Source: Candidatus Kuenenia stuttgartensis (lineage in GTDB: Bacteria; Planctomycetota; Brocadiia; Brocadiales; Brocadiaceae). From it: a stretch of DNA of 32,000 nucleotides. Under the pieces are notes generated by a model. The model was not told the origin of the DNA. It did not search any database and saw only the letters and a list, made by a program, of their open reading frames with translations. Shown one piece after another: positions 13,108 to 30,294 of the stretch. Location: the NCBI RefSeq assembly GCF_900232105.1, contig NZ_LT934425.1:4170001-4202000 (forward strand). Reading direction: 5' to 3'. A program made the position numbers and the translations under genes. Each line of letters begins with the position of its first letter. Position 1 is the stretch's first letter.

Positions 13108-14780
13108 TATTGTAAGGGCCGTTCTTTCATCTTTATTTCATTTGTTTCAACGTCATAGACAGAATTTACATACTTAAGCCAGCGATTATCGTCTTTTTGG
13201 GGATAGTCCAATCTGGTTTGATAACACGCCCATCGGGTCTCCTTCCGGTAAATGAGATGTTCCACCAATGTCCTGGCAACATCAATCCGATCGATACACT
13301 CCAAGGCTTCTACGAGGTTGTAACTATCCGCCGCCATCAACTCCGTTGTATGGTTGTGCAAACATTTCAGCAATTGCCGGGCTTCCAGCAATCTGTTTTC
13401 ATGCAACATGTAATTAAAGGAAATACCCCCGGCATATTCATCCATGATTTTTTGAAGCCGTTCTCTCACATCCAATGGTGTTATCCCGTTAGTTCTGTTT
13501 AATAAATTAAAAATCCTTGCCTTTTCCTTTTCAATACTATTTTCGTCAATTTCTTCTGAAGAGACGTTATCAATGTCTTTTAGCGCCGTTAGCGCCGCAA
13601 TAGCGCCTTCAGCCCAACAGCCACTGACATATTTTTTAGGAGCCCCACCGGCGGCTTCGCCAGCGGCATAAAGCCCTGGAATGGTAGTTCTCCTTTCCGT
13701 ATCAATCCAATATCCCGCCTGGCAATGACCACCCACAACATAAGGTTCCGTACCGCGTATTTCAACGGGTTTTTTTCGCGGCTCCATTCCTTCGCTTGCC
13801 CACATAAGAACAATCTGAGGGTTCATATTCAAATAATCTTCTTTTAGTTTCCTTTCTTCTTCTTCATTCAGGTGCGTTGTGTCAAGATAACAAGGCCCAC
13901 GGCATGCCCTCATTTCCTCAAGCGTGGCAAAAAGTCTGTGTTGAGTCAAACATTTTCTTCCGCCCAAATGCTGATAATGGCAGCCAAGATAGTCTTCCCC
14001 CAGCGCATTAACCTGTTTTGAACAAACACCGATCGCAATTGTGCCTGTAGGGGCATTTACGTCTTTTACGCGCAAAGGGATAAACCTGTTCTCAAAACCT
14101 GTCATTTCGGCGCCAATACGAATCCCCATTGCATAGCCCGTCCCGGCATTCCATGGGCAATACCACATCAAATGCCTCGCGCCGCCGGTATTATTAGGTT
14201 TATATATCCCGGCAGCTCCTCCGGTAGCAACAATAACGGCTTTTGCCCGAACTACATATAAATTACCACCCCTGACGTCATAACCAAACGCACCACAAAC
14301 CCGTTTTCCATTATAGATAAAATTTGTCGCAACGACGCGGTTTAACACCTGAGCCGCCGTTTTCCTCACCGCTTCAGCAAGCATAGGCTTCAGCCTTTCG
14401 CCAAAAATGCGAATACTGCGCGTTCCCCGGTTTTTGTAAGAGCCGTCATCATTTTTTTCAATAGGCAGCCCTAACGCTTCCACCTCCTTTACCACGTCAT
14501 TAAATCTTTCCGCCATGGTAAGGACTAAATCTTTCCGTATAACCCCTTCAAACTCCCTCGCAACAAAATCAACGTATGATTCAGGGGTTTGTCCCGGATG
14601 AATATACGCATTAATAGCATTAAGCCCCATCGCCAAACAACCGCTGCGTTCAATATGTGCCTTTTCCATGATAACCACTTTGCAGCGGGAAGATTTTTTA
14701 TAAATTTGCATTGCTGCAAAGCAGCCGGCCGCACCTCCGCCGATAATTAATATGTCTGCATCAATATTTTTAATATCCAT
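13107..14780 (-). CDS. aprA: APS reductase alpha subunit-like FAD flavoprotein
   Basis: It has an FAD-binding N-terminus (ILIIGGGAAGCFAA) and an SdhA/FrdA/AprA-family core (SGCLAMGLNAINAYI, VIVATGGAAG, GLYAAGEAAGG). It is translationally coupled to aprB and adjacent to sat. Confidence 0.75.
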   Translation of the reverse strand: MDIKNIDADILIIGGGAAGCFAAMQIYKKSSRCKVVIMEKAHIERSGCLAMGLNAINAYIHPGQTPESYVDFVAREFEGVIRKDLVLTMAERFNDVVKEVEALGLPIEKNDDGSYKNRGTRSIRIFGERLKPMLAEAVRKTAAQVLNRVVATNFIYNGKRVCGAFGYDVRGGNLYVVRAKAVIVATGGAAGIYKPNNTGGARHLMWYCPWNAGTGYAMGIRIGAEMTGFENRFIPLRVKDVNAPTGTIAIGVCSKQVNALGEDYLGCHYQHLGGRKCLTQHRLFATLEEMRACRGPCYLDTTHLNEEEERKLKEDYLNMNPQIVLMWASEGMEPRKKPVEIRGTEPYVVGGHCQAGYWIDTERRTTIPGLYAAGEAAGGAPKKYVSGCWAEGAIAALTALKDIDNVSSEEIDENSIEKEKARIFNLLNRTNGITPLDVRERLQKIMDEYAGGISFNYMLHENRLLEARQLLKCLHNHTTELMAADSYNLVEALECIDRIDVARTLVEHLIYRKETRWACYQTRLDYPQKDDNRWLKYVNSVYDVETNEIKMKERPLQ

Positions 14781-15200
14781 TTATGGTAACACTTCTGGAG
14801 AAAACATTTTTAGGAAACATCAACATAATCAGAATGAAGCTGGAAAATTAATATGCTATGGATATTTTAATCTACTTTATGAGCGGTAATTTCGATTGTT
14901 CTTACACAAAGACCTTGAATTAAAGCAAGATTCCAGAGTTCATCTTTTCAAAAAATAACAAAGTGCCAATGGTACTTATATTTTATTAATATGTCAAATT
15001 GAAAACGCCCTTCTTCATCAATGTAAATTCGTATTTTTGATTTGTTAAGAAATTATGTAACTTATATTTCTTTATAAATGAACAAATCCTCCTCTATCCT
15101 TCCTGAGAGGTGATCTATCAAATTCTATTCCTGGTAAGGCCTTAAGGGATTGGTAAAATAAAAAATTGATAATGTTTCATGATATTTGTATAATGTGCCC

Positions 15201-15674
15201 ATGCCTATAACGAAAGAATTAGAGAATATACGAAAGTTTGAATCTGTCGGGTTTACTCACGATCAAGCGGAAGTTCTTACAGAGACCCTTGAACAATCGC
15301 ATGTTAACGGACAGCAAAACCTTAAGGATTTTCTTAACATTAAATTTAATGAGATGGACGTCAAATTTAATGCGATGGATGTCCAGTTTAATGCTCTTCG
15401 TAACGATATGGATGTAAAATTTAACGCTATGGATGTAAAATTTAATGTTCTTCGTAATGATGTGGATGTCAAAATTAAAGATTTCCGTAGCGATGTGGAC
15501 GTTAAGTTTAAAGACCTTCGTAACGAAATTGACTTCAGGTTTCTGGAAACCCGTAATGAGATTGTCAACCTTGAGTTTCGCATAAGGGCTTCTCACGCAG
15601 ATTTGCTTATGAAGATATTTGCAATCGTAGCCGGTTGTACCACTATTGCCGTTGCTGTAGCCAAGTTATTTTAA
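15201..15674 (+). CDS. Tail-anchored coiled-coil protein built from short tandem repeats (DUF1640-like)
   Basis: The repeats are MDVKFNA / MDVQFNA / LRNDMDVKFNA / MDVKFNV / LRNDVDVKIKD / FRSDVDVKFKD / LRNEIDFRFLE. The C-terminal TM helix is IFAIVAGCTTIAVAVAKLF. The ATG at 15201 is preferred over the TTG at 15186. Confidence 0.6.
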   Translation: MPITKELENIRKFESVGFTHDQAEVLTETLEQSHVNGQQNLKDFLNIKFNEMDVKFNAMDVQFNALRNDMDVKFNAMDVKFNVLRNDVDVKIKDFRSDVDVKFKDLRNEIDFRFLETRNEIVNLEFRIRASHADLLMKIFAIVAGCTTIAVAVAKLF

Positions 15675-16234: not shown

Positions 16235-17521
16235 TTAGTCATCTACGATTGGACAGACTTGAGAATTTATCCATGTATTAAGGATTACCTCTTCCTTAAC
16301 TCGTGGGATCATTAGTACTATCTTTCCGGATTTTAAAATGAGGCGAAAGGGACGAATTAAATAGTATAGACAGAGCCTCTTTGAGGACAAAGGTACTGAA
16401 AACCTGTTTGAGAGAACTTTTGGATGTGGAAATATTTCTTTAAAGAGAATCTTCACCTTCGTTTGAAATGTATCCGCGATTTGTGACTTGATAAAACTAC
16501 CGGGAACGACGGGAAGAGTATCTTCTCTGATAAGTATTCTTTTATTGATAAGCCGCACTAATTCTTTATTTAAATCCTCTGATTTAAAGCTACTAAGGGC
16601 ATTATGAAAAACGTCATCGTGCTCCCCCATGATTTCCCTTACAATGGAAAAGGTAGTATACATTAGGGTATCTATTCCGTATTTTTCGGTTTCAGACTTA
16701 AACCTTACCCAATCAATATCATCTCTATAATATTTAAGGGTTTGAAAAATATCACACAACTGGATAAGTGCACCTTTGCTACTAAAACCTCCATTTTGAT
16801 TTATAAACCGGTGTTTTAAAAAATGTAGACAGAGGTGAGTAATTAAATCCTCCGGACTGAGTATCTGTACTTTATTGCCAGAAAATTCTATCGTTCTGGC
16901 CTCTTCCCACCACCTTTCAATAATGTCATTAATAATACGAATTCTTACTGGGTGTGCCTTCCTTGCTATGTGCCAGTGAATCTCCACCGGGATATTCTTA
17001 TCTGAATGAACATAACTTATATGCTGGTGATTTTCTCTGTACCAATCCGGTTGCATTTCACCCTGGAAACGATAGTCTAATCCGGACATTATTTTCTCTG
17101 CACAAAGAAGGTCTTCTTTTTTAACGAGAAGGTCTATGTCATTCATTTGCCGTAAACCAATATCGCCATAAACAGTTTTCGCTAAAGTCGCGCCCTTTAG
17201 AACAATAACTTTCACACCTTTATCACAAAATGTCTCTAAAATCCTCTTTAATTCCGCATAAAGGTACATATTCCTGGCTAAATTTCCATGATAAGCCGTT
17301 CTCAACTGAGCCATGACCTCTTGAGGTATACAATGTCTCTTACTGATATTCTTTAAGTTGTGATACAGTAATGGGGCGATACCATGCCAAAAAGCAGAAG
17401 CTAAAACCTCTTCCCAGTTTAACGGAATGTTTATTACATCCTTAATTTTCTCTCCTGTATTCCCTGAGATGCTTGCCTGAAGACAATGGAGTAAGAGCCT
17501 ATTTTCATGTGATATGTTCAT
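16235..17521 (-). CDS. Nucleotidyltransferase of the NTP_transf_5 type found in kinase-associated lasso-like clusters
   Basis: 428 aa. VIVLKGATLAKTVYGDIGLRQMNDIDLLVKKEDL is the typical LKG...R...DIDLLV nucleotidyltransferase motif. It is the last gene of the minus-strand cluster. Confidence 0.7.
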   Translation of the reverse strand: MNISHENRLLLHCLQASISGNTGEKIKDVINIPLNWEEVLASAFWHGIAPLLYHNLKNISKRHCIPQEVMAQLRTAYHGNLARNMYLYAELKRILETFCDKGVKVIVLKGATLAKTVYGDIGLRQMNDIDLLVKKEDLLCAEKIMSGLDYRFQGEMQPDWYRENHQHISYVHSDKNIPVEIHWHIARKAHPVRIRIINDIIERWWEEARTIEFSGNKVQILSPEDLITHLCLHFLKHRFINQNGGFSSKGALIQLCDIFQTLKYYRDDIDWVRFKSETEKYGIDTLMYTTFSIVREIMGEHDDVFHNALSSFKSEDLNKELVRLINKRILIREDTLPVVPGSFIKSQIADTFQTKVKILFKEIFPHPKVLSNRFSVPLSSKRLCLYYLIRPFRLILKSGKIVLMIPRVKEEVILNTWINSQVCPIVDD

Positions 17522-17553: not shown

Positions 17554-18042
17554 CTATATCTTATCAGGGAAACAATACGTCATCGTATAAGTTTTAGTTA
17601 CTTCTGCATTTCTTTCCAGAAAAATATCCCCATGATAAAGAAGCCAGGCATGGCCCTCCAATTTCTTTTTTGCCTCTCCATCAGAGAACCTCCCGTTATA
17701 TCTCACTCCAAAACAAACAAAGACGTTTATTCCCAATTTACGTAAAAAGTGATAAAGAACTAAAGACCGCCTGAGACAGATATTTTTGTCTGTCCAAAGG
17801 TTATGCCTCAATATGTAGTCTGTAAATTTTACGATCTTATCTTTCATGTTTTCCAGGTCTTTGTTACGGCAAACTCTAAAGTTCCGTGGTGCAAGCATCT
17901 TCATAACCCTGGGCAGGGACAAAAATCTGAACAGGAAAGGCAAAACGTTAATCAGGAGAAAAATTCGGGTAAAAAGCCATATCTCCCCGAAGGAGCTAAA
18001 ATGAGTCCTGAATTTTTTAATAGCACAAGTTTTGTTACCCAT
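17554..18042 (-). CDS. Lasso-peptide B2-type leader peptidase (transglutaminase-like cysteine protease)
   Basis: 162 aa with an N-terminal hydrophobic helix, a catalytic-Cys context (NICLRRSLVLYHFLRKLGINVFVCFGVR) and a His context (EGHAWLLYHGD). The start overlaps the PqqD stop by 8 nt (ATGGGTAA). Confidence 0.8.
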   Translation of the reverse strand: MGNKTCAIKKFRTHFSSFGEIWLFTRIFLLINVLPFLFRFLSLPRVMKMLAPRNFRVCRNKDLENMKDKIVKFTDYILRHNLWTDKNICLRRSLVLYHFLRKLGINVFVCFGVRYNGRFSDGEAKKKLEGHAWLLYHGDIFLERNAEVTKTYTMTYCFPDKI

Positions 18043-18319
18043 CTACAACCTTCACTAATTTTTCACGGATAAGTTCATGAATAAGTTTCAGTACACTTTC
18101 TCTGGCCTTTTCAGGTAAAACATCAAATTCATTTTGAATTATTTCGCTTATCTCTCCAGCCGTAAGACCGCTACTGAGCATTTGCCAGATCCGCAGTCCT
18201 GTTTCATTTAAGGTGAAGTACATCTTCGTGCCCAGATGGAGAAGGACGGCCTCTTTGCCCTCTAATTCAGTAATAACAACATCAGGGTCAGGCGTTACCC
18301 TATAATTTAACTCCAGCAT
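18035..18319 (-). CDS. PqqD-family RiPP recognition element (lasso B1-like)
   Basis: 94 aa. VVITELEGKEAVLLHLGTKMYFTLNETGLRIWQMLSSGLTAGEISEIIQNEFDV...VLKLIHELIREKLV matches the PqqD/RRE pattern. The strong RBS aaaggaggt lies upstream. Confidence 0.85.
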   Translation of the reverse strand: MLELNYRVTPDPDVVITELEGKEAVLLHLGTKMYFTLNETGLRIWQMLSSGLTAGEISEIIQNEFDVLPEKARESVLKLIHELIREKLVKVVDG

Positions 18320-18464: not shown

Positions 18465-19496
18465 TTATGCAAATATCACTTCCGTCCAAACCATGCGAGA
18501 CCAGGGGTTTCCCGAAAACTCTTTCAGCCAGTCTACCTTCTTAAAATAATTCAAACAGAACCAACAGGGAAAATAATCTGAATCTCTAAATTTACCATTG
18601 CTGTAGTGTTCAAGCTTCTCTTTTTGAAATTTCCCACTAGCCTCAACCAAACTTACATAAGCCTCAGAAAAACTCATCTCATTCAAATTGCCTATTATAT
18701 CATCGTTTCCCACATCTTCTCCATGTCCCGATAAATTACAGCACATGGTGACATTGCCTCGCCAGTCGATGTTAATCTCTTCCATTTTAAGCGAAGCGCA
18801 AGGAAAGAGTTCGGTCGTATAGTATCCCGATGCCATAACAATAGGAATGGAAAATGTTTTCTGGAGCTGACAGATGATAGTTTCTGTTTGCCTTCTTTCT
18901 ATCGGCGAAATGTCCATATTTTCTGATACGATTCGGGGAGTTGAAATAAGATGGCCAAGCCTGAGTCCCCGGCCTCCCAGTTTTGCTGCAAGCATGGCTA
19001 TTTCATTTAATTCACCCCGACTGTGGGACGTAATGACCGTATTGAAGGTGAAGGGAATATCTTTTACCACGCAAATGCTTACTGCCTGCATCACCCGGCG
19101 ATACGAACCCTTTCCACGAAGCATGTCATGTGTTTCCTCCCTTGCACCTTCTAAACTAAAGGTAATTCCAGTAAGACTATTAAGATGCGGGAGCAACTTC
19201 TCATAAATTCGGGTAAAATTCCAACCATTTGTTACAAAGCCAAAGTTATATCCAGCTTCTGATACCATCGTGAGCATCTCGGTAAATCCGGGATGCAACG
19301 TTGGCTCTCCGCCAGTAAAGGAGATGTAATCAAAGCCATGCCCCCTGGCATTCCGGAGAATTCTTTCTAAGATTTCTATTTTCAGGTCTCCGTCACCACT
19401 ATGCCTTCCATCAAGGCAATGATGGCAACTTAAATTACAGCGATTGGTAAGTTCTATCAATATTCCCGGCATTGTAGTATTACTGTATAAAAGCAT
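18465..19496 (-). CDS. Radical SAM enzyme with a C-terminal SPASM/twitch-type auxiliary cluster domain (peptide-modifying type)
   Basis: CNLSCHHC is the CX3CX2C radical SAM motif, and FTGGEPTL is the SAM-binding GGE motif. At the C-terminus, CASLKMEEINIDWRGNVTMC fits CX9-15GX4C and is followed by CWFC (CX2C). The remaining SPASM cysteines are absent, so the domain looks twitch-like. Confidence 0.85.
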   Translation of the reverse strand: MLLYSNTTMPGILIELTNRCNLSCHHCLDGRHSGDGDLKIEILERILRNARGHGFDYISFTGGEPTLHPGFTEMLTMVSEAGYNFGFVTNGWNFTRIYEKLLPHLNSLTGITFSLEGAREETHDMLRGKGSYRRVMQAVSICVVKDIPFTFNTVITSHSRGELNEIAMLAAKLGGRGLRLGHLISTPRIVSENMDISPIERRQTETIICQLQKTFSIPIVMASGYYTTELFPCASLKMEEINIDWRGNVTMCCNLSGHGEDVGNDDIIGNLNEMSFSEAYVSLVEASGKFQKEKLEHYSNGKFRDSDYFPCWFCLNYFKKVDWLKEFSGNPWSRMVWTEVIFA

Positions 19497-19763
19497 CTCT
19501 TCAGCGTAAATATTACACGATTCCCAACGGTTTCAGGTTTACAACCGTTCGGCTGGGCTCACGACGAAGCCTGAACCTATCTGTAATTTATTTGTCATTT
19601 GTTCTGCTAATAGAAGGCTGGATTGAAAGTATAAAACATTTGGTTCAGGTTACAAACCTGATAATCATATAGAAGGCACCTCCGAGCGCACTCTTCATGG
19701 TAAAATGGAGGATACCGTGAAAGGCGATTGTTAAATAATAACAAAGTAAGGAGGGAGCGAGCA

Positions 19764-20780
19764 ATGGGATATTTCGTAGGAATAGATTTACATGGTGATA
19801 ATAATTATATTGGAATACTCGATGAGGAGGATCGGAAGGTATTCAAGAGGAGAAACCGTAATGACATCAATGAAATAAAGCGCGTATTAGAGCCATACAA
19901 AAAAGAAATAAAGGGTATAGTAGTAGAATCGACCTTTAACTGGTACTGGATAGTGGATGGTCTGATGGAGGCAGGCTATCAGGTACACCTGGCAAATACA
20001 TCGGCAATGCAGCAGTATGAGGGATTAAAGTACATTGACGACACGAGGGATTCGTTTTGGTTGGCAAAGATGTTACGGTTAAAGATATTACCAGAGGGAT
20101 ATATTTATCCCAAAGAGACGCGGTCAGTGAGGGATTTACTGAGGAAGCGGATGATGTTGGTACAACAAAGGACAGCGCATATATTGAGTATGCAAACGAT
20201 GGTAAACCGTAACAAAGGAGTACCGATAAGCGGTGATACGATAAAGAAGCTGAGTAACGAAGAGGTAATGGGGATGTTCAGCGACGTGCATTTGACCATG
20301 TCAGCACAGTGCGATCACGAGGTAATAGAGGTATTAAATAAGCAGATATACAAGATAGAGAAAGCGGTATTAAAGGAGGTGAAGCTAAAGAAGCCGTATA
20401 AGAAATTGCTCAAGGTGCCAGGGATAGGCGAAATCCTGGCAATGACGATAATGCTGGAGACTGGGAACATAGAGCGATTTAGTGATGTGGGGATGTATTC
20501 ATCTTATTGCAGATGCGTATCGGCAAAAAAATTATCGAATGGTAAGAGCAAAGGGAAAGGAAACCGTAAGAACGGGAATAAATACCTTGCGTGGGCGTAT
20601 GTGGAGGCAGCGCATTTTCACGTAAGATTTTGCGAAAAGGGAAGGAAATGGCATCAGAGGAAGGCGTCAAAGAGCCATGTAGTTCTGGCAACGAAAGCCT
20701 TGAGCAATAAGCTGGCCAGGGCATGTTATTACATAATAAAGGAGCAAGTAAACTACGACGAGAAAAAAATGTTTGGGTAG
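19764..20780 (+). CDS. IS110-family DEDD (RuvC-like) transposase/recombinase
   Basis: The N-terminus MGYFVGIDLHGDNNYIGILD...VVESTFNWYWIVDGL is the DEDD_Tnp_IS110 pattern. The C-terminal domain (LLKVPGIGEILAMTIMLETGNIERFSDVGMYSSYCRCV...KGNRKNGNKYLAWAYVEAA) carries the conserved Ser-containing Tnp region. The ATG at 19764 with RBS aaggaggga is preferred over the TTG at 19728. Confidence 0.88.
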   Translation: MGYFVGIDLHGDNNYIGILDEEDRKVFKRRNRNDINEIKRVLEPYKKEIKGIVVESTFNWYWIVDGLMEAGYQVHLANTSAMQQYEGLKYIDDTRDSFWLAKMLRLKILPEGYIYPKETRSVRDLLRKRMMLVQQRTAHILSMQTMVNRNKGVPISGDTIKKLSNEEVMGMFSDVHLTMSAQCDHEVIEVLNKQIYKIEKAVLKEVKLKKPYKKLLKVPGIGEILAMTIMLETGNIERFSDVGMYSSYCRCVSAKKLSNGKSKGKGNRKNGNKYLAWAYVEAAHFHVRFCEKGRKWHQRKASKSHVVLATKALSNKLARACYYIIKEQVNYDEKKMFG

Positions 20781-20964
20781 CAAGCAGATTAGGTGGTGCA
20801 AGGAACCGGTTGCGGGTTAGGTAACCAATCCATGAAACCTGATTGGAAGTTGTTCCACCTTTTATTATGAGTTGTGCCGGTAAAGGAATCGGCGAAAAAG
20901 AATATTCCATTCTGATCTGCCCATACCATGAGCCGTGAGGTTTTGGCCGTAGAGCCGAATATTC

Positions 20965-21556
20965 TGTGAATAACGATTGGACACTGGTATGGAACCGATG
21001 GTTTTCTGGGACAGAAGATAAGTCAGGGGCGGTGAGAAAGTCTTTCACAAAGCCTTGATCCCGATGGGTGAATGGTGCGGATGAGAACGATACCAAAACA
21101 ATTGCGAAATACCACGGGCGTAGATAAACGTGAACGGTATAGTCATTTTCGTAAACAGCAGTAAGAGCGATTCCGTACTTGGAGGGGTATTCAAAACGTG
21201 AAAATGTAGATATTTTTGCGACCGGAGATATTTTGTCCTTGACAAAAGCCTTCTAATGAGTGTGAATAACGATTGGACACTGGTATGGAACCGATGGTTT
21301 TCTGGGACAGAAGATAAGTCAGGGGCGGTGAGAAAGTCTTTCACAAAGCCTTGATCCCGATGGGTGAATGGTGCGGATGAGAACGATACCAAAACAATTG
21401 CGAAATACCACGGGCGTAGATAAACGTGAACGGTATAGTCATTTTCGTAAACAGCAGTAAGAGCGATTCCGTACTTGGAGGGGTATTCAAAACGTGAAAA
21501 TGTAGATATTTTTGCGACCGGAGATATTTTGTCCTTGACAAAAGCCTTCTAATGAG
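20965..21556. repeat. Perfect tandem duplication, 2 x 296 bp, in the 3' non-coding region of the IS110-family element
   Basis: Unit 20965-21260 (tgtgaataacgattggacactgg...ccttgacaaaagccttctaatgag) is repeated at 21261-21556 with no mismatch that I could find by eye. The three overlapping minus-strand ORFs beginning MVSFSSAPFTHRDQGF are its translation artefacts. Confidence 0.9.
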
Positions 21557-21687
21557 TGAACCCGCGAAAGTATCTATGCAGCGTAAACGACGCACGGCTC
21601 GTTCCAAAACCTTGTACTAAACATAGTGAAGTATCCAGTTTGGGAATGCTTATGGATAAGCCTCCTGGATTTTCTACGCAGACAATT

Positions 21688-21721
21688 CCACCCCCTTAAT
21701 CCCCCGCCAGCGGGGGACAGG
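21688..21721. repeat. GC-rich hairpin repeat (copy 4, tail on the minus strand)
   Basis: ccacccccttaatcccccgccagcgggggacagg. The stem is CCCCCGC/GCGGGGG and the reverse-complement tail is GGGGGATTAAGGGGGTGG. Confidence 0.45.
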
Positions 21722-21924
21722 CTTGCCACGTCTCTTGCAGCTTTCATGTCGGGGGCATTCCCGGTTTTTTGTGACTTCTGCCATGTCTTAATGAAATGTA
21801 CAGTAGTATCAACCCTGTCAGAGTTGTTTTACCTGTGTTACGTGTGTTCCGTGGTTCCGTTTGAAACCCTGGCCACATGAACGGTTACAAAAAATCGGGA
21901 ATGCTCCTATTTGTGTCTTGGTAG

Positions 21925-22911
21925 CTAAACAATTAAACCTGATAAAATTTCTGAAATTCTCTCCGGCTCTTCATACAAATCGCGTCCTGCAAGGAGTTCG
22001 TAACTATCTGACTGAGATACAAGCCGCTTAATGGCCTCTAAATGTACATTGACCGCCTGACGTTTAAAAAATAGCGATGAACTTTGCCTCATCAATCTTA
22101 TAAAAGCAGTTGTTTTATCTACGGGTATCAACATACTCTCAGGTTGAAGAACTATTTGGGTGTAAATCAATACCTTTGGAAAACAGCTTGGTTGAAATCG
22201 ACCGGGGTAGACCGATTCTACATCTAAAAATCGTTTTGTATGGTTTCCCATTGCTGATCCCTTAAGATGAGGATCTATTTCAGGGAATTGCCGGGACAAG
22301 GCAGGATCAAGATAAAAATGCTTCCGAAAGGCCAGGGATTCTATCCCGTCCGCAGATGATCTAAGAAAAAGGGCATCGTCTGAGACATAGTGCCAGCCCT
22401 GACTGACCAAACTAAGGGCAGTGCTGGATTTTCCGCTCCCTGACTCCCCTAAAAACAGATAGCCCATCCCATCCCTGACAAGCCCGGCAGCATGAAGGTC
22501 GTAGAAACCCCGGGAAGAAAGGAGATGGATAAGGCCGACAAGAAAGAAGTTATACTTCGATAAAGGAGGTTTTTCCTTAAAAGAGCGATGAAGGGTTACG
22601 AGCCCTGTTCCCGCTTGAAGTTGGAGCTGAAAAACGGATAATCCGTCGGTGAGGTAAACGTGACCATCTGCCTCGTAAATCGAAGAATCATAGCCGTTGA
22701 GTGGTTGTGATGCCGTATATGGGATATGCGAGGGGACATCTGTCGCTACGAATTTCAATTCAATGTGAGCAGGCTTACCGCCATTGTATATTTGAGTAAA
22801 GGGGAAGGAATAGAAGAACTGCTCAATTTCATATCCAATCCCTTCCCCTTTCCACTGAACCCCAACGGTTATTTCGTATAAAGAATAGAAATTAACCCCT
22901 GCTTCAGTCAT
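21925..22911 (-). CDS. HPr kinase/phosphorylase C-terminal-domain-like kinase (lasso/RiPP precursor kinase type)
   Basis: 328 aa. LHAAGLVRDGMGYLFLGESGSGKSSTALSLVSQGWHYVSDDALFL is the HprK-like P-loop region, as in kinases that phosphorylate lasso precursor peptides. Confidence 0.75.
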   Translation of the reverse strand: MTEAGVNFYSLYEITVGVQWKGEGIGYEIEQFFYSFPFTQIYNGGKPAHIELKFVATDVPSHIPYTASQPLNGYDSSIYEADGHVYLTDGLSVFQLQLQAGTGLVTLHRSFKEKPPLSKYNFFLVGLIHLLSSRGFYDLHAAGLVRDGMGYLFLGESGSGKSSTALSLVSQGWHYVSDDALFLRSSADGIESLAFRKHFYLDPALSRQFPEIDPHLKGSAMGNHTKRFLDVESVYPGRFQPSCFPKVLIYTQIVLQPESMLIPVDKTTAFIRLMRQSSSLFFKRQAVNVHLEAIKRLVSQSDSYELLAGRDLYEEPERISEILSGLIV

Positions 22912-23131: not shown

Positions 23132-23308
23132 TTACGGTGTAAAGGTACCAAATAGCCCATTGCCGGTAATTTTGGTTGCATCCCCGTGTTTCGTAAGCTT
23201 TGGTTCTACGAAGGTTAATTTGGGTTCTGCAAAAGGCTTCCTGGCGTGAGAATCACCTATCCCTGTAACTACCTGGCCTATGTGTCCTGCTGAAATTTTT
23301 TCTAACAT
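23132..23308 (-). CDS. Candidate RiPP precursor peptide (58 aa), absent from the ORF track because it is below 60 aa
   Basis: MLEKISAGHIGQVVTGIGDSHARKPFAEPKLTFVEPKLTKHGDATKITGNGLFGTFTP. The RBS AGGAGA lies 7 nt upstream of the ATG, and an in-frame stop lies directly upstream. Residues 33-48 (FVEPKLTKHGDATKIT) fit the lasso leader motif Y/F-xx-P-x-L-xxx-G-xxxxx-T exactly. The gene lies directly upstream of the kinase on the same strand. Confidence 0.65.
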   Translation of the reverse strand: MLEKISAGHIGQVVTGIGDSHARKPFAEPKLTFVEPKLTKHGDATKITGNGLFGTFTP

Positions 23309-23404
23309 TTTTCATTCTCCTATCATTGTTTTTTGTGAAGAATAACCACAGGGTACGCAGGGTATTTCTCCGTGCACCCTTCTGTGTTCAAAACATATTT
23401 CTGA

Positions 23405-25330
23405 TTAAGGACGGAATCTGCCAAAGAATCTCTTACCCTTAGTCCTGGATTTTGTTTTCTTTAATTGCTTTTTGACTTGTGATGCATCTGCGCTCGTCAC
23501 TTCCTGATCCGTTTGTTCTTCCGTCTCAAACCCCAACACGTCCACAACAAAAACAAACGACTTGCTCTCCGTTAAGCAAATAATGAAAGTGACATCTACC
23601 GATTCTCCCGGGCTTAGTACACCATCCGCATAAGCATCTGCTGTCAATGGAATGGTCATTGTTGCCCCTTCTCCACCATCCCCTCCGTCTGCATTATGGA
23701 GTAGATTTCCATTTGTCAATGTTTTAACCAAAACCACAAGGCCTGTAAGGGGCGGACTGCTGCTCTTGTTTGTAAGTTTGGCACCAAAGCTAAATTTTCC
23801 AACAAATCCAGGTGGACAATCGGTGGTATCAGTAGTAATCACGTAAGTTGAACGATCCCTTACAAATCTAACAAAGTCATTAACAATCCCTGGGTACTCT
23901 ACTGCACCAATGTCGCATACAACACTACCATCGCCATTGCCATCTGTGCGAGGATTCCCAAGCTGGTCAGTTTGTGTATCAGGATAATCCTGATACACGT
24001 CATTGGCGCCTGCATCAATGGCAGGGCTGGTTGATAGCAGTGGGAAGTGGCCATTGCCAGGTGTCCCGTCATCGGTGAAGGCGCCCAAACCTGAGTCCCC
24101 TGTGAGGTCGCTTGGTTGAAGGATGATGTTGACGTGGCTACCAGTAGTATTGCCAATAAGATTATTGCCCAGTGATATGATATCACCGAAACAATCTTGC
24201 GCCGCCCCTTGTGACGCTGTATTTCCAGCAATGATGGTGTTTTGTATTTTTACGCTTGTGTTTCCTACGGGTGAAGCAATTCCGCCGCCGCCACGGCCAG
24301 CACTGTTTTCGCTGACGGTGCAGTTGATGAGCAAGCATTGTGCTAGAAAATTAACCCATATGCCACCACCATCGTGGTATGGTACAGTGTTATTAGCGAT
24401 TGTGCTGTTAATAATTGTCATCGTGCCGGTTCTGTGGTGTATTCCGCCCCCCTCGAAAACAGAATAATTACCACTAATATCGGTGTTATTTATCGTCAGG
24501 TTTCCAGAATGATTGATGATACCACCACCGCCGCCACCAGTGCCGCCATTGTCAGCATTGTCTTTGACTGTGCAACTGCTTAACGTTAAATCTCCATTGT
24601 TTCCGATTCCACCACCAGCACTAACAGTTCTTCCTATGCTCTGATTGCTGCTGATGGTGCTGTTGATGATTGTCATCGTTCCCAGGTTCCATATGCCACC
24701 ACAACTGGAATGGGCTATATTGTTGCTGATGATGCTACTGGTAATTATTGCCGTGCCTGCGTTATAGATGCCTCCAGCATCGTCACCGGCCATATTGTCG
24801 CTGACTGTGCTATTTTTTATTGTCAGTTTGCCGAGATTCCTGATACCACCGCCGTCATGTTCTGAATCCTCAGGAACTCGTTCAGTAGCAGTAGCACCTC
24901 TCATAACGGTTAGTCCATCTAACTCCAGAGTTCCTGTATCAGCAACATGAAAAATACGAAAAAAAGGTTCACTATCGCTACGTTCGATGATGGTGGTGTC
25001 AGCACCAGCACCTTTTATGGTGATATTGCTTCTGATAGAAGGTAAGCCCGTTGGTCCGTCGGTATGGGTGGTATCGTTATACACATCCGGCAGGGTATAG
25101 GTGTCAGCCGCCATGGTAATCGTATCGGTTCCCGGATGTTCAACTTCATTGTTAGCGTCATTGATTGCATTAATCAATTGTGAAACGTTACTGACAAGAA
25201 AATCAGTAGCATTAATGGTACGTGGCACAGATAGTGCGAAGACTGTGAATGAAATGAATAGCACCTGCGCATACCCCAAATAAGCAAAACTTCCATATCC
25301 CCTTTCCCTTTTGTTCCTTACCGTGTTCAT
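23405..25330 (-). CDS. Secreted right-handed beta-helix repeat protein (PbH1 / choice-of-anchor-Q-like) with a C-terminal module shared with the next gene
   Basis: It has a signal peptide and many GGGI.N.G.LT(I/L).NST(I/V)S.N repeats. The motif DQLGNPRTDGNGDGSVVCDIGAVEY is typical of this domain's end. The last ~160 aa are homologous to the C-terminus of the 25391-30085 product. The RBS AAGGAG lies upstream. Confidence 0.75.
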   Translation of the reverse strand: MNTVRNKRERGYGSFAYLGYAQVLFISFTVFALSVPRTINATDFLVSNVSQLINAINDANNEVEHPGTDTITMAADTYTLPDVYNDTTHTDGPTGLPSIRSNITIKGAGADTTIIERSDSEPFFRIFHVADTGTLELDGLTVMRGATATERVPEDSEHDGGGIRNLGKLTIKNSTVSDNMAGDDAGGIYNAGTAIITSSIISNNIAHSSCGGIWNLGTMTIINSTISSNQSIGRTVSAGGGIGNNGDLTLSSCTVKDNADNGGTGGGGGGIINHSGNLTINNTDISGNYSVFEGGGIHHRTGTMTIINSTIANNTVPYHDGGGIWVNFLAQCLLINCTVSENSAGRGGGGIASPVGNTSVKIQNTIIAGNTASQGAAQDCFGDIISLGNNLIGNTTGSHVNIILQPSDLTGDSGLGAFTDDGTPGNGHFPLLSTSPAIDAGANDVYQDYPDTQTDQLGNPRTDGNGDGSVVCDIGAVEYPGIVNDFVRFVRDRSTYVITTDTTDCPPGFVGKFSFGAKLTNKSSSPPLTGLVVLVKTLTNGNLLHNADGGDGGEGATMTIPLTADAYADGVLSPGESVDVTFIICLTESKSFVFVVDVLGFETEEQTDQEVTSADASQVKKQLKKTKSRTKGKRFFGRFRP

Positions 25331-25390: not shown

Positions 25391-28300
25391 TTAAGGATGG
25401 AATCTGCGAAAGAAACCTTTTCTCATAAGTCCTGATCCTTTCCCGAATTTTGCAAGACCTGGTTTAATGTCTGTTGATTGGAGTTCTGCAACTTGTAAAG
25501 AATCTGTTTGTCCTTCCTTAATCCCCAATACATCCACAACGAAACCAAACGACTTGCTCTCAGTTAAGCAAATAATGAAAGAGACATCTACCGATTCCCC
25601 CGGGCTTAGTACGCCATCGGCATAATCACCAATATTTGGAACAGTCAACCTTGCTCCCACCCCGCCTGGTACTCCATCGGCATTTTGCAATACGTTGTTA
25701 TTCGTTAATTCTACAACCTCCATCACGAGATCCGTAAGCGGAGGGTTATTTCTTTTGTTTTTCAGCGTTGCATCGAAACTAAACTGCCCCACAAACTCAT
25801 CCCCACAACCGGTTGTATCAGAAGTAGTCTGATATGTTGATCGTACAGGTTTAAAGGCAACAAGGTCATTAATAATTTCCGGGCTTGGCGCTGGTGCTTC
25901 TCCAAGGACAATGTCTCCCAGTGCCGATGTATCCAAATAATTATTTGCCGTTCCTATCCAGACAACCTGTCCTTCACGACCCGACCAATCGTCGTCATCA
26001 TTGTATCCCACACTAAAGCCAATGGTCATACCTGCCGTGGGGGTAATTCCCAGATTGCTCCATGGTATGGCCAGTTCTATACTATACCCGCCAGTAATTG
26101 TCGCCCAGGCATGCAATACGTCCGTTTTCTTACCATTTTTTTCAAAAAGTGTTTCATCATTCCATCCTTTAATGAACTGACGATCGTAACTATCGTATGT
26201 CGTACCGTGATTATGGTCGCCGTCAATATAGATCTCCACACTGTCATTTTCATGCACAGACGTTGAGTCATTATAGAGGGTATCATCCAGCACCTTAACA
26301 CCTACGTAGAGGTAGGTATTATCCCAGAGTACCCCGAACGTTGCGGTGTTGTTCGTAGTCCCAATGACCACATTACTCACATCGGTTGCAATGTCCCATG
26401 CCGATTCGTCTAAGTTTCCATCCACGGCTAGATTCAGGCTCACATAAGGCACGGTCACCGGATTTGCGGAAAGATTACTGTCAAACTTTGATACAAAGGC
26501 ATCAGTAGGACCGCCACTATAACCAGCAAGAGAAGGATCATATGCATCAGTGGTTGTTGGAAAGTCTGAAGACCAAGTCGCACCAGTCACATAGACATCT
26601 CCATTTGGGGCTATCGCTATAGACATGCAAAATTCACTGCTAGCTCCTCCAAGATATGTGGATGCAAGGAGGCTGGTTAAATCACTATTGAGCTTTGATA
26701 CAAAGGCATCTTCGTTACCAGTGAGGATGCCGTTAAACGAAGTATCATAGGCGCCTCGAGTTGTTGGAAAGTCTGATGATGAAGTACTGCCAGCCACATA
26801 GACATTTTCCCATGAGTCTATGGTTAGAGAATAGCAAAACTCACCGGAAGACCCTCCAAGATATGTTGATGCAAGGAGTTTTGTTAGATCACCGCTTAAC
26901 TTTGATACAAAAGCATTTGTCCAACCATCTTTAAAAGTATCATAAGCGCTAGCGGTTGTCGGAAAGTCTGCTGAGTTAGTCCAGCCAGCTACATATACAT
27001 TCCCCCCTGAATCTATAACAATAGAACGGCCATAATCCCAATTAGTCCCCCCTAAATACGTGGATGCAAGGATGCTGGCTAAATCACCGCTGAGTTTTGA
27101 TACAAAGGCATCTTCTCTATAAGTACTACCATTGTAAGAAGTATCATAGGCACCCGTAGTTGTTGGAAAGTTTGGTGATGAAGTACTGCCAGCTACATAG
27201 ATATTTCCCCCTGAGCCTATGGCAATATCCTGGATCACCCCTCCGTTCAGAGATTTGGAAGCAATGAGGTTTGTTAATGTATCATTTAGTTTCAACACAG
27301 CAGAACCACGAGCCACATAGATATTTCCCCCTGAGTCTATGGCTATCGAATCGCCTGAACCCCAGCCAGATCCCAAATATGTTGAAGCAAGGAGGTTGGT
27401 TAGATCATTACTGAGCCTTGCTAGAAAGGCACTACCGGAAGTATTATAAGCGCCCGGGGTGGTTGGAAAGTCCGATGACAAAGTTTCACCCGTCACATAT
27501 ACATTCCCGCTTGCATCGAGGGCGATAGCATTACCATAATCATCGTCAGAACCCCCCAGATACGTGGATACAAGGAGATTTGTTAAATCGCTACTTAGCT
27601 TCGATACAAAGGCATCATGACCACCATTAAAAGAAGTGTCATAAACACCCGAGGTTGTTGGAAAACCTGACGTACTAGTCGAACCTGCTACATATACATT
27701 CCCACTTGAGTCAATAGTTACAGAAGTACCGTAATCAAAGCCACCGGAAGACCCTCCTAGATATGTGGATGCAAGAAGGTTGGTCAAATCACCGTTGAGC
27801 TTCGATACAAAGACATCATAACCATCATTAAAAGAAGTATCATAAGCACCCGGAGTTGTTGGAAAGTCTGATGACCAGGCCGAACCAGTTAAATATATAT
27901 TCCCGTTTGAGTCTATGGCTATAGCGCTAATATATCCTCCACTATCTCCATATCCTCCACCCAAATATTTTGAAGCAAGGGGGCTGGTTAAATCACCAGT
28001 AAGCTTCAATACATTAGAACCACCCGTAATATATACATTCCCCTCTGAGTCTATGGCTATATCATTGCCAGCATCACTGGCAACCCATTCCAGATATGTG
28101 GATGAAAGGAGAGTGGTTAAATCACTATTGATCTTTGATACGAAGACATTAAAATCATAATAATCATCAAAATAAGTATCATAAGCACCTGGAGTTGTTG
28201 GAAAGTCTGTTGATCCTGTTGAACCAGTCACATAGATATTTCCCCCCGAATCTATGGCTATAGCATTACCAGAATCTTCGCCATCTCCTCCCAGATAGGT

Positions 28301-30085
28301 GGATGCAAGGAGGCTCGTTAATGCACTATTAAGCTTTGATACAAAGACATCGCTACCGCCATTAAAATAATCATCATAGACACCCGAGGTTGTTGGAAAA
28401 CTTGATGACCCGGTCGAACCAGTTACATAGACATTTCCATATGAATCTATGGCTGTAGCACTGATAGATCCTCCACTCAAAGATGTGGAACCAAGGAGAC
28501 TTGTTAACGCCCCATTGAGCTTAAATACGGTGTCACCCCCCCCCACATAAATATTTCCTCCAGTGTCTATGGCTATTGAAGTGCCTGCGTTTCCCAAATA
28601 TGTAGAAGCAAGGAGGCTGGTTAGATCATTACTTAGCCTTGATACAAAGCCACTACCGGAAGTATTATAAGCACCCGGGGTAGTTGGAAAGTCTGTTGAC
28701 CCGGTTGAACCAGTCACATAAATATTTCCCCCAGAATCTATGGCTATAGCATTGCCAGAATCTTCGCCAACTCCTCCCAAATAGGTGGATGCAAGGAGGC
28801 TGGTTAAGTCACTATTGAGCTTTGACACAAAGGCATAATCACTACCATTAAAAAAAGTATCATAGGCGCCGGGAGTTGTGGGAAAGTCTGGTGACCCAGT
28901 CGAACCAGTCACATAGATATTTCCCCCTGAATCTATGGCTATAGCATTACCATAGTCCGCACCAGATCCTCCGGATCCTCCCAAGTATGTGGACTCAAGG
29001 AGTGGGTCAATTACAACCTCCCGTGACCTGTCATAGTCTTCAAGTTTAAAACTATACTCATTACCTATTACAACATAAGCAGCCTCAATGTATTGTCTGT
29101 CACTGAGATCCCCCTCACCCCTACCCTTTCCCGCAAGGGGAGCGGAAGAACGGCTTTTTTTTGTAGTGGTAGAAGGAACTTTGGATTCCTGATAGACTAT
29201 GGGCTTTGTGAACTTGACGATACCTAACGCCGTCTCCGCCTCAAGCAGTCCATCTTCATTTACTTTTAATGTCTTTGCACCGCTCAGTCTCAGTTTTATC
29301 GCCGTGGGGTCTGCGCCAGGCTTTACATAAAAGAGTTTTTCGACGTTATTCCCGTACGCCTTCAGTTTTAGTTCTATTCCATTATAAACTTCCCCAAGCG
29401 TCACCACATCATACGTCTGGATATTGGTCTTCCACTTCGATTGATCATTTCCTCTGAAGTCGTTCACAGTTGTGGTGGCCTTCTTTTCCCCTTTTATCTT
29501 ACCAATCCAGCCGCCTACCATCTCCTCTTTCAATACTACTCCCCTTGTCCCTTGTTTCTTTTTATTTTCGGAATGGCCTTGTTTACCGTCATCCTGCTTC
29601 GTATCATTCTGTCCGCCAGCCTTTACTGACGGGCTATTTGCAGGCGAGTGATGATGCATACCGTCAAATCCCCCTGCATTTCCCTTTTCCCCTTTGTTAA
29701 TGGGGGATTTATGAGGATTTACCGGTCTGTTGTGGGCATGGACGTCGGCCCCTCCATTTTTTCGTTGGGGCAGGGAATAGACAATCTCTCCATTCTTCGT
29801 TACAAATACCGTTCCCCCAAATGTGTTAGCATAGAACATTACCCTTTCATCGGTTTGCCCTTCATTGGCTATAAAAGGCATCTGAAGTTTCCTTGTCCTT
29901 TGAACAACCTCTGCCATACTCAATTGCTCATCCCCGGTCGAAGCCGGAGAGAGGTTTTTGATTACAGATTGCGGACTTATTGGTTTAGACAATGGTTTAC
30001 CTGTATCAGCCAGGAGGATTTTGAAGAAAAAAACGACCGGCAAAAGAACCGCAAGTAATACAAAAAACTTGTTCTTCTTTTTCAT
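25391..30085 (-). CDS. Giant secreted SBBP (beta-propeller) repeat protein with a CBM9-like domain and the shared C-terminal module
   Basis: It has a signal peptide (MKKKNKFFVLLAVLLPVVFFF) and about 14 repeats of STYLGG..D.G.AIAIDSGGNIYVTG.T.S.DFPTTPGAYDT...G..DAFVSKL. A CBM9-like block (LNLAVDGNLDESAWD...WDNTYLYVGVKVLDD...DSVEIYIDGDH...GYSIELAIPWSNLG) follows, then the shared C-terminal module. The ATG at 30085 with RBS GGAGGA is preferred over 30100. Confidence 0.85.
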   Translation of the reverse strand: MKKKNKFFVLLAVLLPVVFFFKILLADTGKPLSKPISPQSVIKNLSPASTGDEQLSMAEVVQRTRKLQMPFIANEGQTDERVMFYANTFGGTVFVTKNGEIVYSLPQRKNGGADVHAHNRPVNPHKSPINKGEKGNAGGFDGMHHHSPANSPSVKAGGQNDTKQDDGKQGHSENKKKQGTRGVVLKEEMVGGWIGKIKGEKKATTTVNDFRGNDQSKWKTNIQTYDVVTLGEVYNGIELKLKAYGNNVEKLFYVKPGADPTAIKLRLSGAKTLKVNEDGLLEAETALGIVKFTKPIVYQESKVPSTTTKKSRSSAPLAGKGRGEGDLSDRQYIEAAYVVIGNEYSFKLEDYDRSREVVIDPLLESTYLGGSGGSGADYGNAIAIDSGGNIYVTGSTGSPDFPTTPGAYDTFFNGSDYAFVSKLNSDLTSLLASTYLGGVGEDSGNAIAIDSGGNIYVTGSTGSTDFPTTPGAYNTSGSGFVSRLSNDLTSLLASTYLGNAGTSIAIDTGGNIYVGGGDTVFKLNGALTSLLGSTSLSGGSISATAIDSYGNVYVTGSTGSSSFPTTSGVYDDYFNGGSDVFVSKLNSALTSLLASTYLGGDGEDSGNAIAIDSGGNIYVTGSTGSTDFPTTPGAYDTYFDDYYDFNVFVSKINSDLTTLLSSTYLEWVASDAGNDIAIDSEGNVYITGGSNVLKLTGDLTSPLASKYLGGGYGDSGGYISAIAIDSNGNIYLTGSAWSSDFPTTPGAYDTSFNDGYDVFVSKLNGDLTNLLASTYLGGSSGGFDYGTSVTIDSSGNVYVAGSTSTSGFPTTSGVYDTSFNGGHDAFVSKLSSDLTNLLVSTYLGGSDDDYGNAIALDASGNVYVTGETLSSDFPTTPGAYNTSGSAFLARLSNDLTNLLASTYLGSGWGSGDSIAIDSGGNIYVARGSAVLKLNDTLTNLIASKSLNGGVIQDIAIGSGGNIYVAGSTSSPNFPTTTGAYDTSYNGSTYREDAFVSKLSGDLASILASTYLGGTNWDYGRSIVIDSGGNVYVAGWTNSADFPTTASAYDTFKDGWTNAFVSKLSGDLTKLLASTYLGGSSGEFCYSLTIDSWENVYVAGSTSSSDFPTTRGAYDTSFNGILTGNEDAFVSKLNSDLTSLLASTYLGGASSEFCMSIAIAPNGDVYVTGATWSSDFPTTTDAYDPSLAGYSGGPTDAFVSKFDSNLSANPVTVPYVSLNLAVDGNLDESAWDIATDVSNVVIGTTNNTATFGVLWDNTYLYVGVKVLDDTLYNDSTSVHENDSVEIYIDGDHNHGTTYDSYDRQFIKGWNDETLFEKNGKKTDVLHAWATITGGYSIELAIPWSNLGITPTAGMTIGFSVGYNDDDDWSGREGQVVWIGTANNYLDTSALGDIVLGEAPAPSPEIINDLVAFKPVRSTYQTTSDTTGCGDEFVGQFSFDATLKNKRNNPPLTDLVMEVVELTNNNVLQNADGVPGGVGARLTVPNIGDYADGVLSPGESVDVSFIICLTESKSFGFVVDVLGIKEGQTDSLQVAELQSTDIKPGLAKFGKGSGLMRKGFFRRFHP

Positions 30086-30294
30086 TTTACCATCCTCCAT
30101 TATTGATTATATGAAAACCCGTATCTCACAACGCACACTACTTTGAAACTACAAAATACTTTGATACGGAACATTGGCCAGCCACAAGGGTTGCGGCGCT
30201 ACATTTCCATGCTTCCCCATGCGCCCTTAGGGAATGAGGTTTTTTGCAAATATTCATTAAAAAACCTATAGCATATAGCATATTAAAAATAATT

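Follow-up and report, generated by a model that had tools for sequence, protein, structure and literature searches.

A short conserved peptide of Candidatus Kuenenia stuttgartensis as the likely precursor of a cyclase-free, lasso-related radical-SAM pathway

Lasso peptide clusters of the paeninodin and pseudomycoidin type combine a leader of the form [Y/W/F]xxPxL...T(-2), a stand-alone PqqD-family recognition element (RRE) for peptides made by the ribosome and altered after translation (RiPPs) and a transglutaminase-like B2 peptidase with a kinase bearing a His-Lys-Asp-Asp tetrad, a PF14907 enzyme and a Ser/Thr near the C-terminus of the peptide as the likely phospho-acceptor. The tetrad is essential by mutagenesis in the lasso-tailoring kinases PadeK and ThcoK, and PsmN, a PF14907 homologue, puts a hexose on the phospho-Ser of pseudomycoidin (PMC9266682). 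Proteases of the C96 (B2) type were listed for lasso peptides only in a 2023 review (PMC10885120). The linear polyphosphorylated peptides (LPPs; Popov et al. 2026, PMC13381572) are cyclase-free linear relatives of lasso peptides with an RRE, an HprK-like kinase, a PF14907 enzyme and a YxxPx[L/V] leader box; LppN was silent in heterologous expression (PMC13381572). SynChlorMet, a cassette defined computationally (NCBIfam TIGR04248-TIGR04251: ScmC, ScmD, ScmE and ScmF), holds a trio of an HprK-like protein, a PqqD-like protein and a radical S-adenosylmethionine (SAM)/SPASM protein. Mycofactocin (MftA/B/C) and pyrroloquinoline quinone (PQQ; PqqA/D/E) arise from a short conserved C-terminal core through a stand-alone PqqD-family chaperone, a radical-SAM maturase and later trimming by a peptidase. 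Triceptides, for example Xye, Grr and Fxs, are radical-SAM RiPPs that form three-residue cyclophanes; a 3-CyFE-type radical-SAM enzyme cross-links the aromatic residue of an aromatic-x-x motif to C-beta of the third residue. Apart from the triceptides, the features named here for each system are those it shares with the locus that we describe, where the phospho-acceptor is a putative one; this locus lies in a stretch of 32,000 nucleotides of Candidatus Kuenenia stuttgartensis (NZ_LT934425.1, positions 4,170,001 to 4,202,000; 'the window'). An open reading frame (ORF) at 23132..23308 on its minus strand is likely to encode the precursor (A) peptide of a cyclase-free, lasso-related radical-SAM RiPP pathway.

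The ORF comprises 58 codons plus a stop and begins at an ATG (23306-23308); its translation is MLEKISAGHIGQVVTGIGDSHARKPFAEPKLTFVEPKLTKHGDATKITGNGLFGTFTP. A Shine-Dalgarno sequence, AGGAGA (23316..23321, minus strand), precedes the start codon across a 7-nt spacer (ATGAAAA), and the upstream in-frame codons (...GAA TGA AAA ATG) place a stop two codons before the ATG. An earlier note on this DNA had read the frame, its translation and both signals in the same way, and had pointed to a lasso-type leader, an internal duplication and a C-terminus free of acidic residues and Cys, all of which we recovered from the sequence and the ORF list. The leader motif is F33-x-x-P36-x-L38-x3-G42-x5-T48. The duplication consists of two [FWY]xxPxL boxes: the first, F26-A-E-P-K-L31 (23216..23233), is conserved family-wide, and the second, F33-V-E-P-K-L38 (23195..23212), a putative RRE-binding site, stands in register with G42 and T48 and matches NCBIfam lasso leader models. 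By the lasso Thr(-2) rule (PMC10885120) cleavage probably falls after T48-G49. The predicted leader then covers residues 1-49 (23162..23308), which fits the conservation of T48 and the P36-to-T48 spacing, fixed across the family, and the predicted core is NGLFGTFTP (residues 50-58; 23135..23161), without Asp, Glu or Cys. Relatives of the peptide scored 23.6 and 22.7 bits against lasso_leader_L3 (NF033521; cut-off 19). The window peptide itself had no Pfam match and reached only a sub-threshold 18 bits against lasso_cyano, the cut-off being 33.

Conservation of the peptide was examined at the protein and codon levels. Among 5.8 billion proteins searched, 48 homologues of 52-70 residues were recovered (E 2.6e-29 to 2.4e-7), which NCBI records label 'hypothetical protein' and which come, where the source is named, from Brocadiaceae, Scalindua, Loosdrechtia and 'Planctomycetia'. 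The profile built from the 49-sequence alignment was then compared with 1.84 billion cluster representatives and matched at least 215 clusters at 50% identity (E <= 1e-3), nearly all of them peptides of 45-90 residues. F26, K30, L31, F33, P36, K37, L38, H41, G42, D43, A44, T45 and T48 are invariant in the 49 close sequences (A1), in which F53 and F56 are nearly so; the wide alignment (A2) retains P29, P36, L38 and G42 as invariant, with T48 conserved in at least 90%. Compared with its orthologues, the 24-codon leader block gave non-synonymous divergence (dN) of 0.02-0.08 and synonymous divergence (dS) of 0.6-2.4 (ratio of means 0.046; leader dN/dS ~0.03-0.05), ratios that are biased downwards by the recruitment of orthologues through protein or motif similarity. 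Judged from these comparisons, the ORF is a real gene under strong purifying selection. A spurious or decayed frame without a product of its own would be in keeping with the shortness of the ORF, its missing Pfam match and the IS110 element that interrupts the cluster in the window, but we consider it highly improbable given the conservation at the protein level, the saturated synonymous change (dS ~0.6-2.4 against dN <=0.08), the good Shine-Dalgarno sequence and an operon position that is fixed across phyla.

Alignment of about 200 sequences yielded a family pattern, [FWY]-x-E-P-K-L-x-[FY]-[VI]-x-P-K-L-x-x-x-G-x4-[VIL]-T-x, followed by a linker of 0-9 residues and a heptad. Thus, while the nonapeptide NGLFGTFTP that the earlier note had taken as the core is indeed present, the functional core is better set as the heptad F-F-G-x-F-x-P after a variable linker. 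Among 170 scorable sequences, position 1 is F in 93%, position 2 is F in 93%, position 3 is G in 94%, position 4 is T or S in 60%, position 5 is F in 99%, the penultimate position 6 is S or T in 72% and the last, position 7, is P in 86%. Paeninodin-type tailoring has a conserved C-terminal Ser as its phosphorylation site, whereas the very last residue here is Pro. The peptide ends at the heptad Pro in 120 of the 170, and the others add 1-20 residues. Given a lasso-type cut after T-x, the minimal family core would be FFGTFSP, of 7 residues; in the window the heptad is LFGTFTP (L52-P58; 23135-23155), preceded by the two-residue linker N-G, and its Leu at position 1 is rare (3/170). Ser, Thr or Tyr occupies position 4 or 6 in 163 of the 170 cores and, in five of the seven exceptions, Ser replaces Gly at position 3, suggesting a requirement for one hydroxyl residue within the heptad; since these five sequences are close anammox relatives, they stand for few independent events.

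A few precursors depart from this scheme. On the Competibacteraceae contig JAXMFU010000002.1 there are two paralogues (L006 3480-3749 and L007 5137-5349), one with Cys-Cys in place of Phe-Phe (…TAQCCFGPFSPEEDG) and the other with an unrelated acidic core (…TAQQQEDDAIS); a CCFGEFSP variant also occurs in P0138. In P0210, of 136 residues, a C-terminal part of a B2 peptidase is joined to a complete precursor (…QEPKLTFVKPKLIKHGEFKEVTGFFGQFTPQ). This joint is probably a gene-calling read-through where B2 lies directly upstream, and may be a real fusion.

We then considered the enzymes encoded with the peptide, all on the minus strand. Downstream of it lies the gene of an HprK-like, ScmC-like kinase of 328 residues (21925..22911), which matched Pfam Hpr_kinase_C and NCBIfam HprK_rel_A/B and ScmC, in each case below the cut-off; the Scalindua orthologue carries a precomputed Pfam ScmC match. 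Its P-loop and H140, K161, D178 and D179 are conserved across 18 orthologues, the four residues at a level of at least 90%. The radical-SAM enzyme (18465..19496, 343 residues; Pfam Radical_SAM 78 bits, SPASM 23 bits) has a truncated SPASM, Twitch-like C-terminal domain. Its conserved Cys residues are C20/C24/C27 (CX3CX2C), C233-x13-G-x4-C252/C253 and C311-x2-C314, a pattern from which a single auxiliary cluster of the Twitch-like kind is predicted for the C-terminal domain. The PqqD-family RRE (B1; 18035..18319, 94 residues) scored 60.4 bits against Pfam PqqD (cut-off 23.4) and stayed below the lasso-specific NCBIfam cut-offs (lasso_PqqD_Bac 48.8 versus 80; another model 45.5 versus 70). The transglutaminase-like, lasso-type B2 leader peptidase (17554..18042, 162 residues) exceeded the cut-off of NF033537 lasso_biosyn_B2 (47.2 versus 33 bits), and its C89 and H131 are conserved in 15 orthologues. 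Finally, a PF14907 nucleotidyltransferase of 428 residues (16235..17521; NTP_transf_5, 216 bits) retains G110 and D128-x-D130.

The minus strand of the window thus reads, in order, a 1569-residue SBBP/CBM9 protein, a 641-residue beta-helix protein, the peptide, the kinase, an insertion, the radical-SAM enzyme, PqqD, B2 and the nucleotidyltransferase. Loosdrechtia, Scalindua and one further homologue locus have an identical gene order, with no cyclase within 10 kb. For a wider view, we scanned 185,579 species genomes with a degenerate DNA pattern for EPKLx[FY][VI]xPKL. It hit 48 stretches, which translation resolved into 37 real peptide genes and 11 chance matches, and none of the latter was accompanied by any of the five cluster enzyme genes. 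Hidden Markov models (HMMs) of the cluster proteins were run on all loci, 42 of which are distinct peptide loci. The kinase, adjoining the peptide gene, was present in 38 of the 42, the radical-SAM enzyme in 31, PqqD in 23, B2 in 24 and the nucleotidyltransferase in 15. All five are minimum numbers, since most loci were seen as slices of 8 kb that lie off-centre. The earlier note had named loss of the small ORF from homologous clusters, or its replacement by another conserved one, as refuting its proposal. We found instead that the ORF is kept beside kinase, radical-SAM, PqqD and B2 homologues at these 42 independent loci from many phyla, and that no rival small ORF replaces it.

The predicted pathway is present in anammox Planctomycetota and in many other phyla, the peptide loci covering at least eight. 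The anammox genera are Brocadia, Kuenenia, Jettenia, Scalindua, Anammoxibacter and Loosdrechtia. Further peptide genes are found in Acidobacteriota (including Vicinamibacterales, Terriglobia and Pyrinomonadaceae), Nitrospira/Nitrospirales, Thermodesulfovibrionia, Desulfosarcina and other 'delta proteobacteria', Competibacteraceae, Ectothiorhodospiraceae, Ignavibacteriales, Dehalococcoidia, Chloroflexia and Acidimicrobiia. The B2 gene lies 3′ of PqqD in some lineages, whereas others have it immediately upstream of the peptide gene. A GNAT-type acetyltransferase gene was seen within or beside the cluster in Scalindua (L003 11221-11763), a deltaproteobacterial metagenome-assembled genome (MAG; L037 6247-6765) and a Dehalococcoidia MAG (L036 1001-1582), where it may add a further tailoring step.

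Comparison with the lasso systems showed both sides of the relationship. The locus has the [Y/W/F]xxPxL leader with Thr(-2), a PqqD-family B1 and a B2 peptidase, and it lacks a PF00733 asparagine-synthetase-like cyclase as well as an Asp/Glu at core position 7-9 with a threading tail. No such cyclase was detected among the scanned ORFs of the window or among called genes within ~10 kb at L001, L003, L004 and L053. The exclusion of macrolactam chemistry proposed in the earlier note was therefore upheld, on the acid-free core and the absence of the cyclase from the window and the flanks of related loci. A canonical lasso peptide was rejected since two defining features, the cyclase and the acidic ring residue, fail. 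One might still suppose an ordinary lasso precursor whose cyclase is encoded elsewhere in the genome, as the leader, PqqD and B2 are of lasso type and only 32 kb of the genome were examined. We regard this as very improbable, for the core has no Asp/Glu, the minimal family core has 7 residues, no PF00733 gene appeared in the window or within ~10 kb at the four loci just named, and a radical-SAM gene holds a conserved slot beside the kinase. Unlike paeninodin-type clusters, the peptide cluster has a radical-SAM enzyme and is without cyclase, ring Asp/Glu or ABC exporter; its core has 7-9 nearly invariant residues, compared with ~15-25 in paeninodin-type lasso peptides, and its hosts belong to Gram-negative or uncultured phyla, whereas paeninodin-type clusters occur mainly in Bacillota.

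The cyclase-free LPPs differ in other respects. They use a SipW-like signal peptidase in place of B2, have an MsbA-like exporter and contain no radical-SAM enzyme (PMC13381572); neither a SipW-like peptidase nor an MsbA-like exporter was seen in the window or related loci. Moreover, LPP precursors have 35-200 residues with variable cores, and their leader consensus, YxxPxVLxHQxIxFETxxS, is absent here. SynChlorMet has two radical-SAM enzymes where the present cluster has one, and here B2 and the nucleotidyltransferase are added. All four of its models scored below their cut-offs (ScmC 24.5/125 bits, ScmD 32.9/100, ScmE 63.6/400 and ScmF 71.3/400). As to triceptides, the likeness presumably lies in the aromatic-x-x near the C-terminus (F-G-T and F-T-P here) together with a radical-SAM enzyme, and the differences, as we understand them, in the third residue of the first motif, which is not conserved and can be Gly, and in the leader-processing module. 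No NCBIfam triceptide maturase model stood among the best 25 of 66 radical-SAM matches. We found no published description of the motif or the architecture in the literature searched, which may not cover every publication.

The resemblance to mycofactocin and PQQ raises a different interpretation, in which the peptide is consumed inside the cell and a conserved small molecule or cofactor is made from the FFGxFxP tail, as in those two pathways, rather than a secreted bioactive peptide. The core is almost invariant over at least eight phyla, whereas antimicrobial RiPPs have variable cores; a radical-SAM enzyme, a stand-alone PqqD and a peptidase reproduce the PQQ/mycofactocin layout; and the cluster has neither a conserved transporter nor a conserved immunity gene. 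MftC and PqqE are also among the best, if remote, matches of the radical-SAM enzyme, along with SkfB (E = 1.7e-17) and BlsE. However, their scores lie far below the equivalog cut-offs (MftC 81 versus 265 bits, PqqE 61 versus 381), and the enzyme has only CX13GX4C plus a CX2C remnant instead of a full two-cluster SPASM domain. The similarity to the two pathways is remote and the core another one, and here a kinase and a nucleotidyltransferase are present without linked redox enzymes. The vicinity shows no conserved cofactor-dependent dehydrogenase, the family accepts a variable linker and 0-20 residues after the heptad, and the conserved neighbours are secreted proteins. On balance we think a cofactor precursor unlikely.

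Returning to the reading as a lasso-related RiPP precursor, the analogies suggest a possible sequence of steps. PqqD would bind the [FWY]xxPxL box or boxes and present the peptide to the enzymes; that tandem boxes let two RRE-dependent enzymes engage together is speculation. The HprK-like kinase would phosphorylate a heptad Ser/Thr (T55 or T57) on the full-length precursor, in the manner of PadeK, ThcoK and LppK, and the phosphate may give the nucleotidyltransferase a point at which to attach a hexose or a nucleotide, as with PsmN. The radical-SAM enzyme would alter the Phe-rich heptad, a C-C cross-link or an epimerization being possible, and this is the least certain step. B2 would then cut after T48-G49 to give a modified peptide of 7-9 residues, and no macrolactam would be formed. 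Since there is no exporter and the core is invariant, a diversifying antimicrobial role is not expected.

The secreted proteins encoded upstream of the peptide gene showed an unforeseen link to the peptide. The 641-residue beta-helix protein (23405..25330, minus strand) has a C-terminal beta-sandwich domain, here called VDVLG, and a basic tail that ends in GKRFFGRFRP; the 1569-residue SBBP/CBM9 protein (25391..30100, minus strand) carries the VDVLG domain too and ends in RKGFFRRFHP. Both tails echo the end of the peptide, GNGLFGTFTP, a resemblance that the earlier note had missed. The shared domain comprises ~115 residues (consensus ...LSPGExVDVPFVICL....F.FFVDVLG), and in an AlphaFold (AF2) model it forms a beta-sandwich with block-mean confidence (pLDDT) of 84-96, mostly >90, with a disordered tail behind it (pLDDT 53-60). 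Compared with PDB by Foldseek, the domain model matched only generic beta-sandwiches, none with E < 1e-3. Proteins capped by the domain are diverse (beta-helix, SBBP, FG-GAP, RHS, CLIPPER, peptidase S8 and laminin-G) and come from Nitrospirota, 'Deltaproteobacteria' and further groups; they usually stop 2-4 residues past VDVLG. A VDVLG-domain protein lies within a few kb at 27 of the 42 peptide loci, in Acidobacteriota, Nitrospirota, Desulfobacterota, Chloroflexota and Brocadiia. The basic tail of 30-47 residues ending in [KR]xFF[GR]RFxP was found only in anammox lineages, in 11 distinct examples. Large secreted proteins of the VDVLG type were noted, besides the two in the window, at L001 (3661-5142 and 6962-9673) and at L010, L014, L020, L025, L039 and L040.

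These observations would fit a role of FFGxFxP as a portable C-terminal tag or ligand for secreted VDVLG-domain proteins, supplied in most phyla in trans as the peptide and, in anammox bacteria, also in cis as GFFGRFRP; the peptide would bind the VDVLG proteins, be attached to them or compete with them for anchoring or sorting. Besides the frequent neighbourhood and the 11 tails, the C-terminal pattern picked out, among 8313 ORFs, only peptides, anammox tails and one chance ORF. One tail (...ATRISGNGFFGRFRP) contains ATRISG-NGFFGRFRP, near to the leader end ATKITG, and an orphan peptide copy adjoins a VDVLG-domain protein (L055). However, the tails have no RRE-binding boxes and are missed by the peptide HMMs, and Arg, not Ser/Thr, occupies their x positions. 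Of four VDVLG-domain proteins on long contigs, one lies beside the cluster, two have no cluster within 10 kb and one is uninformative, so that two of the three informative cases count against the idea. Structurally the domain is a generic beta-sandwich without an informative match, the enzymes are cytoplasmic whereas the VDVLG proteins carry signal peptides, and a simple gene-fusion remnant would account for the tails too. We therefore consider a tag quite unlikely. DNA identity between the tails and the 3′ ends of peptide genes is ~49-56%, and a profile search with the anammox tails (A3) retrieved one fragment only. With the HMMs missing the tails and DNA identity at this level, neither homology beyond the last ~8 residues nor recent gene conversion is demonstrated. 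A fusion remnant, a shared tag or ligand, and extra substrates are all possible origins of the tails.

Three further observations touch the peptide and its VDVLG neighbours. In some Acidobacteriota precursors (L008, L015, L024, P0157 and P0177) a strongly basic linker precedes the heptad (…TGKRKRNGFFGEFSP), recalling the basic stretch before FFGRFRP in the anammox tails. The orphan gene at L055 (7513-7686, GCA_024449835.1) stands on a 14.7-kb contig devoid of kinase, radical-SAM and PqqD genes and is flanked by a peptidase-S8 protein with a VDVLG domain, an autotransporter and a caspase-like Sel1 protein. At L056 (10707-16236) a VDVLG-domain protein has as neighbours an additional PqqD gene, an ABC transporter and fragments of a nucleotidyltransferase, ~8 kb from a set of B2, peptide, kinase and radical-SAM genes; the genes of this stretch look fragmented, possibly through frameshifts of a long-read assembly.

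The window differs from other loci, at which the kinase and radical-SAM genes abut or overlap, in a 2.4-kb insertion between them (19497..21924). It contains an IS110 transposase (19728-20780, plus strand; NF033542, 170.8 bits). It also holds a 296-bp tandem duplication that is perfect (20965-21260 / 21261-21556, 100% identity); the duplication creates repeated pseudo-ORFs and could be real or an assembly artefact. The insertion parts the peptide and kinase genes from those for the radical-SAM enzyme, PqqD, B2 and the nucleotidyltransferase, and the flanking genes look intact. Downstream of the peptide gene, a 9-bp stem, AAGGGUCUU/AAGAUCCUU, appears in the minimum-free-energy fold. The earlier note had proposed this hairpin as a partial terminator that sets the ratio of precursor to enzymes. 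The stem has no U-tract, a terminator scan was negative and folding of the 224-nt spacer showed no gain over shuffled sequence (z = -0.43), and an attenuator was accordingly rejected.

Several points weigh against the interpretation of the ORF as a RiPP precursor, or against parts of it. The reaction of the radical-SAM enzyme is a guess because the enzyme has no close characterised relative, and the dN/dS values carry the downward bias mentioned above. Ser/Thr is not conserved at heptad position 4 taken alone, nor at position 6, and the FFGRFRP tails are without a hydroxyl residue. B2 was not found in six loci that span the rest of the cluster (L007, L034, L036, L046, L049 and L053), so B2 cleavage may not be universal. 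No transporter is conserved in the cluster among the related loci compared, and the genes that lie downstream of the IS110 insertion in the window may be uncoupled or silent as a result of it. Our confidence in any specific chemistry is low. The precursor assignment itself we still hold to be likely, and the RiPP family to which it belongs is widespread and apparently undescribed.

Other features of the window lie outside the cluster. In an ORF of 679 residues (1248-3287, plus strand) an ammonium transporter domain (373 bits) is joined with a HisKA/HATPase_c histidine kinase; the protein may be an ammonium-sensing kinase in this anammox-type genome. An ORF of 460 residues (5931-7313, minus strand) joins a DruA-like N-terminal region (82 bits) to DDE_Tnp_1_assoc and DDE_Tnp_1 transposase domains. 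Pfam matches at 11525-14780 (minus strand) mark a sulfate adenylyltransferase gene, a small ferredoxin-like ORF and an FAD-binding flavoprotein of the fumarate-reductase family; by position and size the last two look like AprB and AprA. An ORF of 162 residues (15186-15674, plus strand) has tandem repeats of approximately 'DV(K/Q)FNA(M/L)…', a weak CCDC90-like match and, at its C-terminus, a hydrophobic helix, and its repeat also yields long antisense ORFs (15219-15596 and 15263-15583, minus strand). An Rfam scan of the window returned only a tRNA (11284-11357).

If our interpretation is true, the B1/B2 module for leader recognition and cleavage, which a review treats as limited to lasso peptides (PMC10885120), has been taken over for use beside a radical-SAM enzyme, to give a different, very short and highly conserved product. 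The signature described here is a clear one for peptides that escape present Pfam and NCBIfam models or are marked by them as lasso leaders only, and it is spread over anammox Planctomycetota, Acidobacteriota, Nitrospirota, Desulfobacterota, Chloroflexota, Gammaproteobacteria and others, mostly uncultured and environmentally important. The link to secreted proteins and the tails of anammox surface proteins offer a concrete handle on function; should the tag explanation prove true, lasso-derived machinery would serve a system of cell-surface protein tagging, anchoring or ligand binding and not an antibiotic. As the core is invariant across phyla, a housekeeping or signalling role is likelier than antibiosis.

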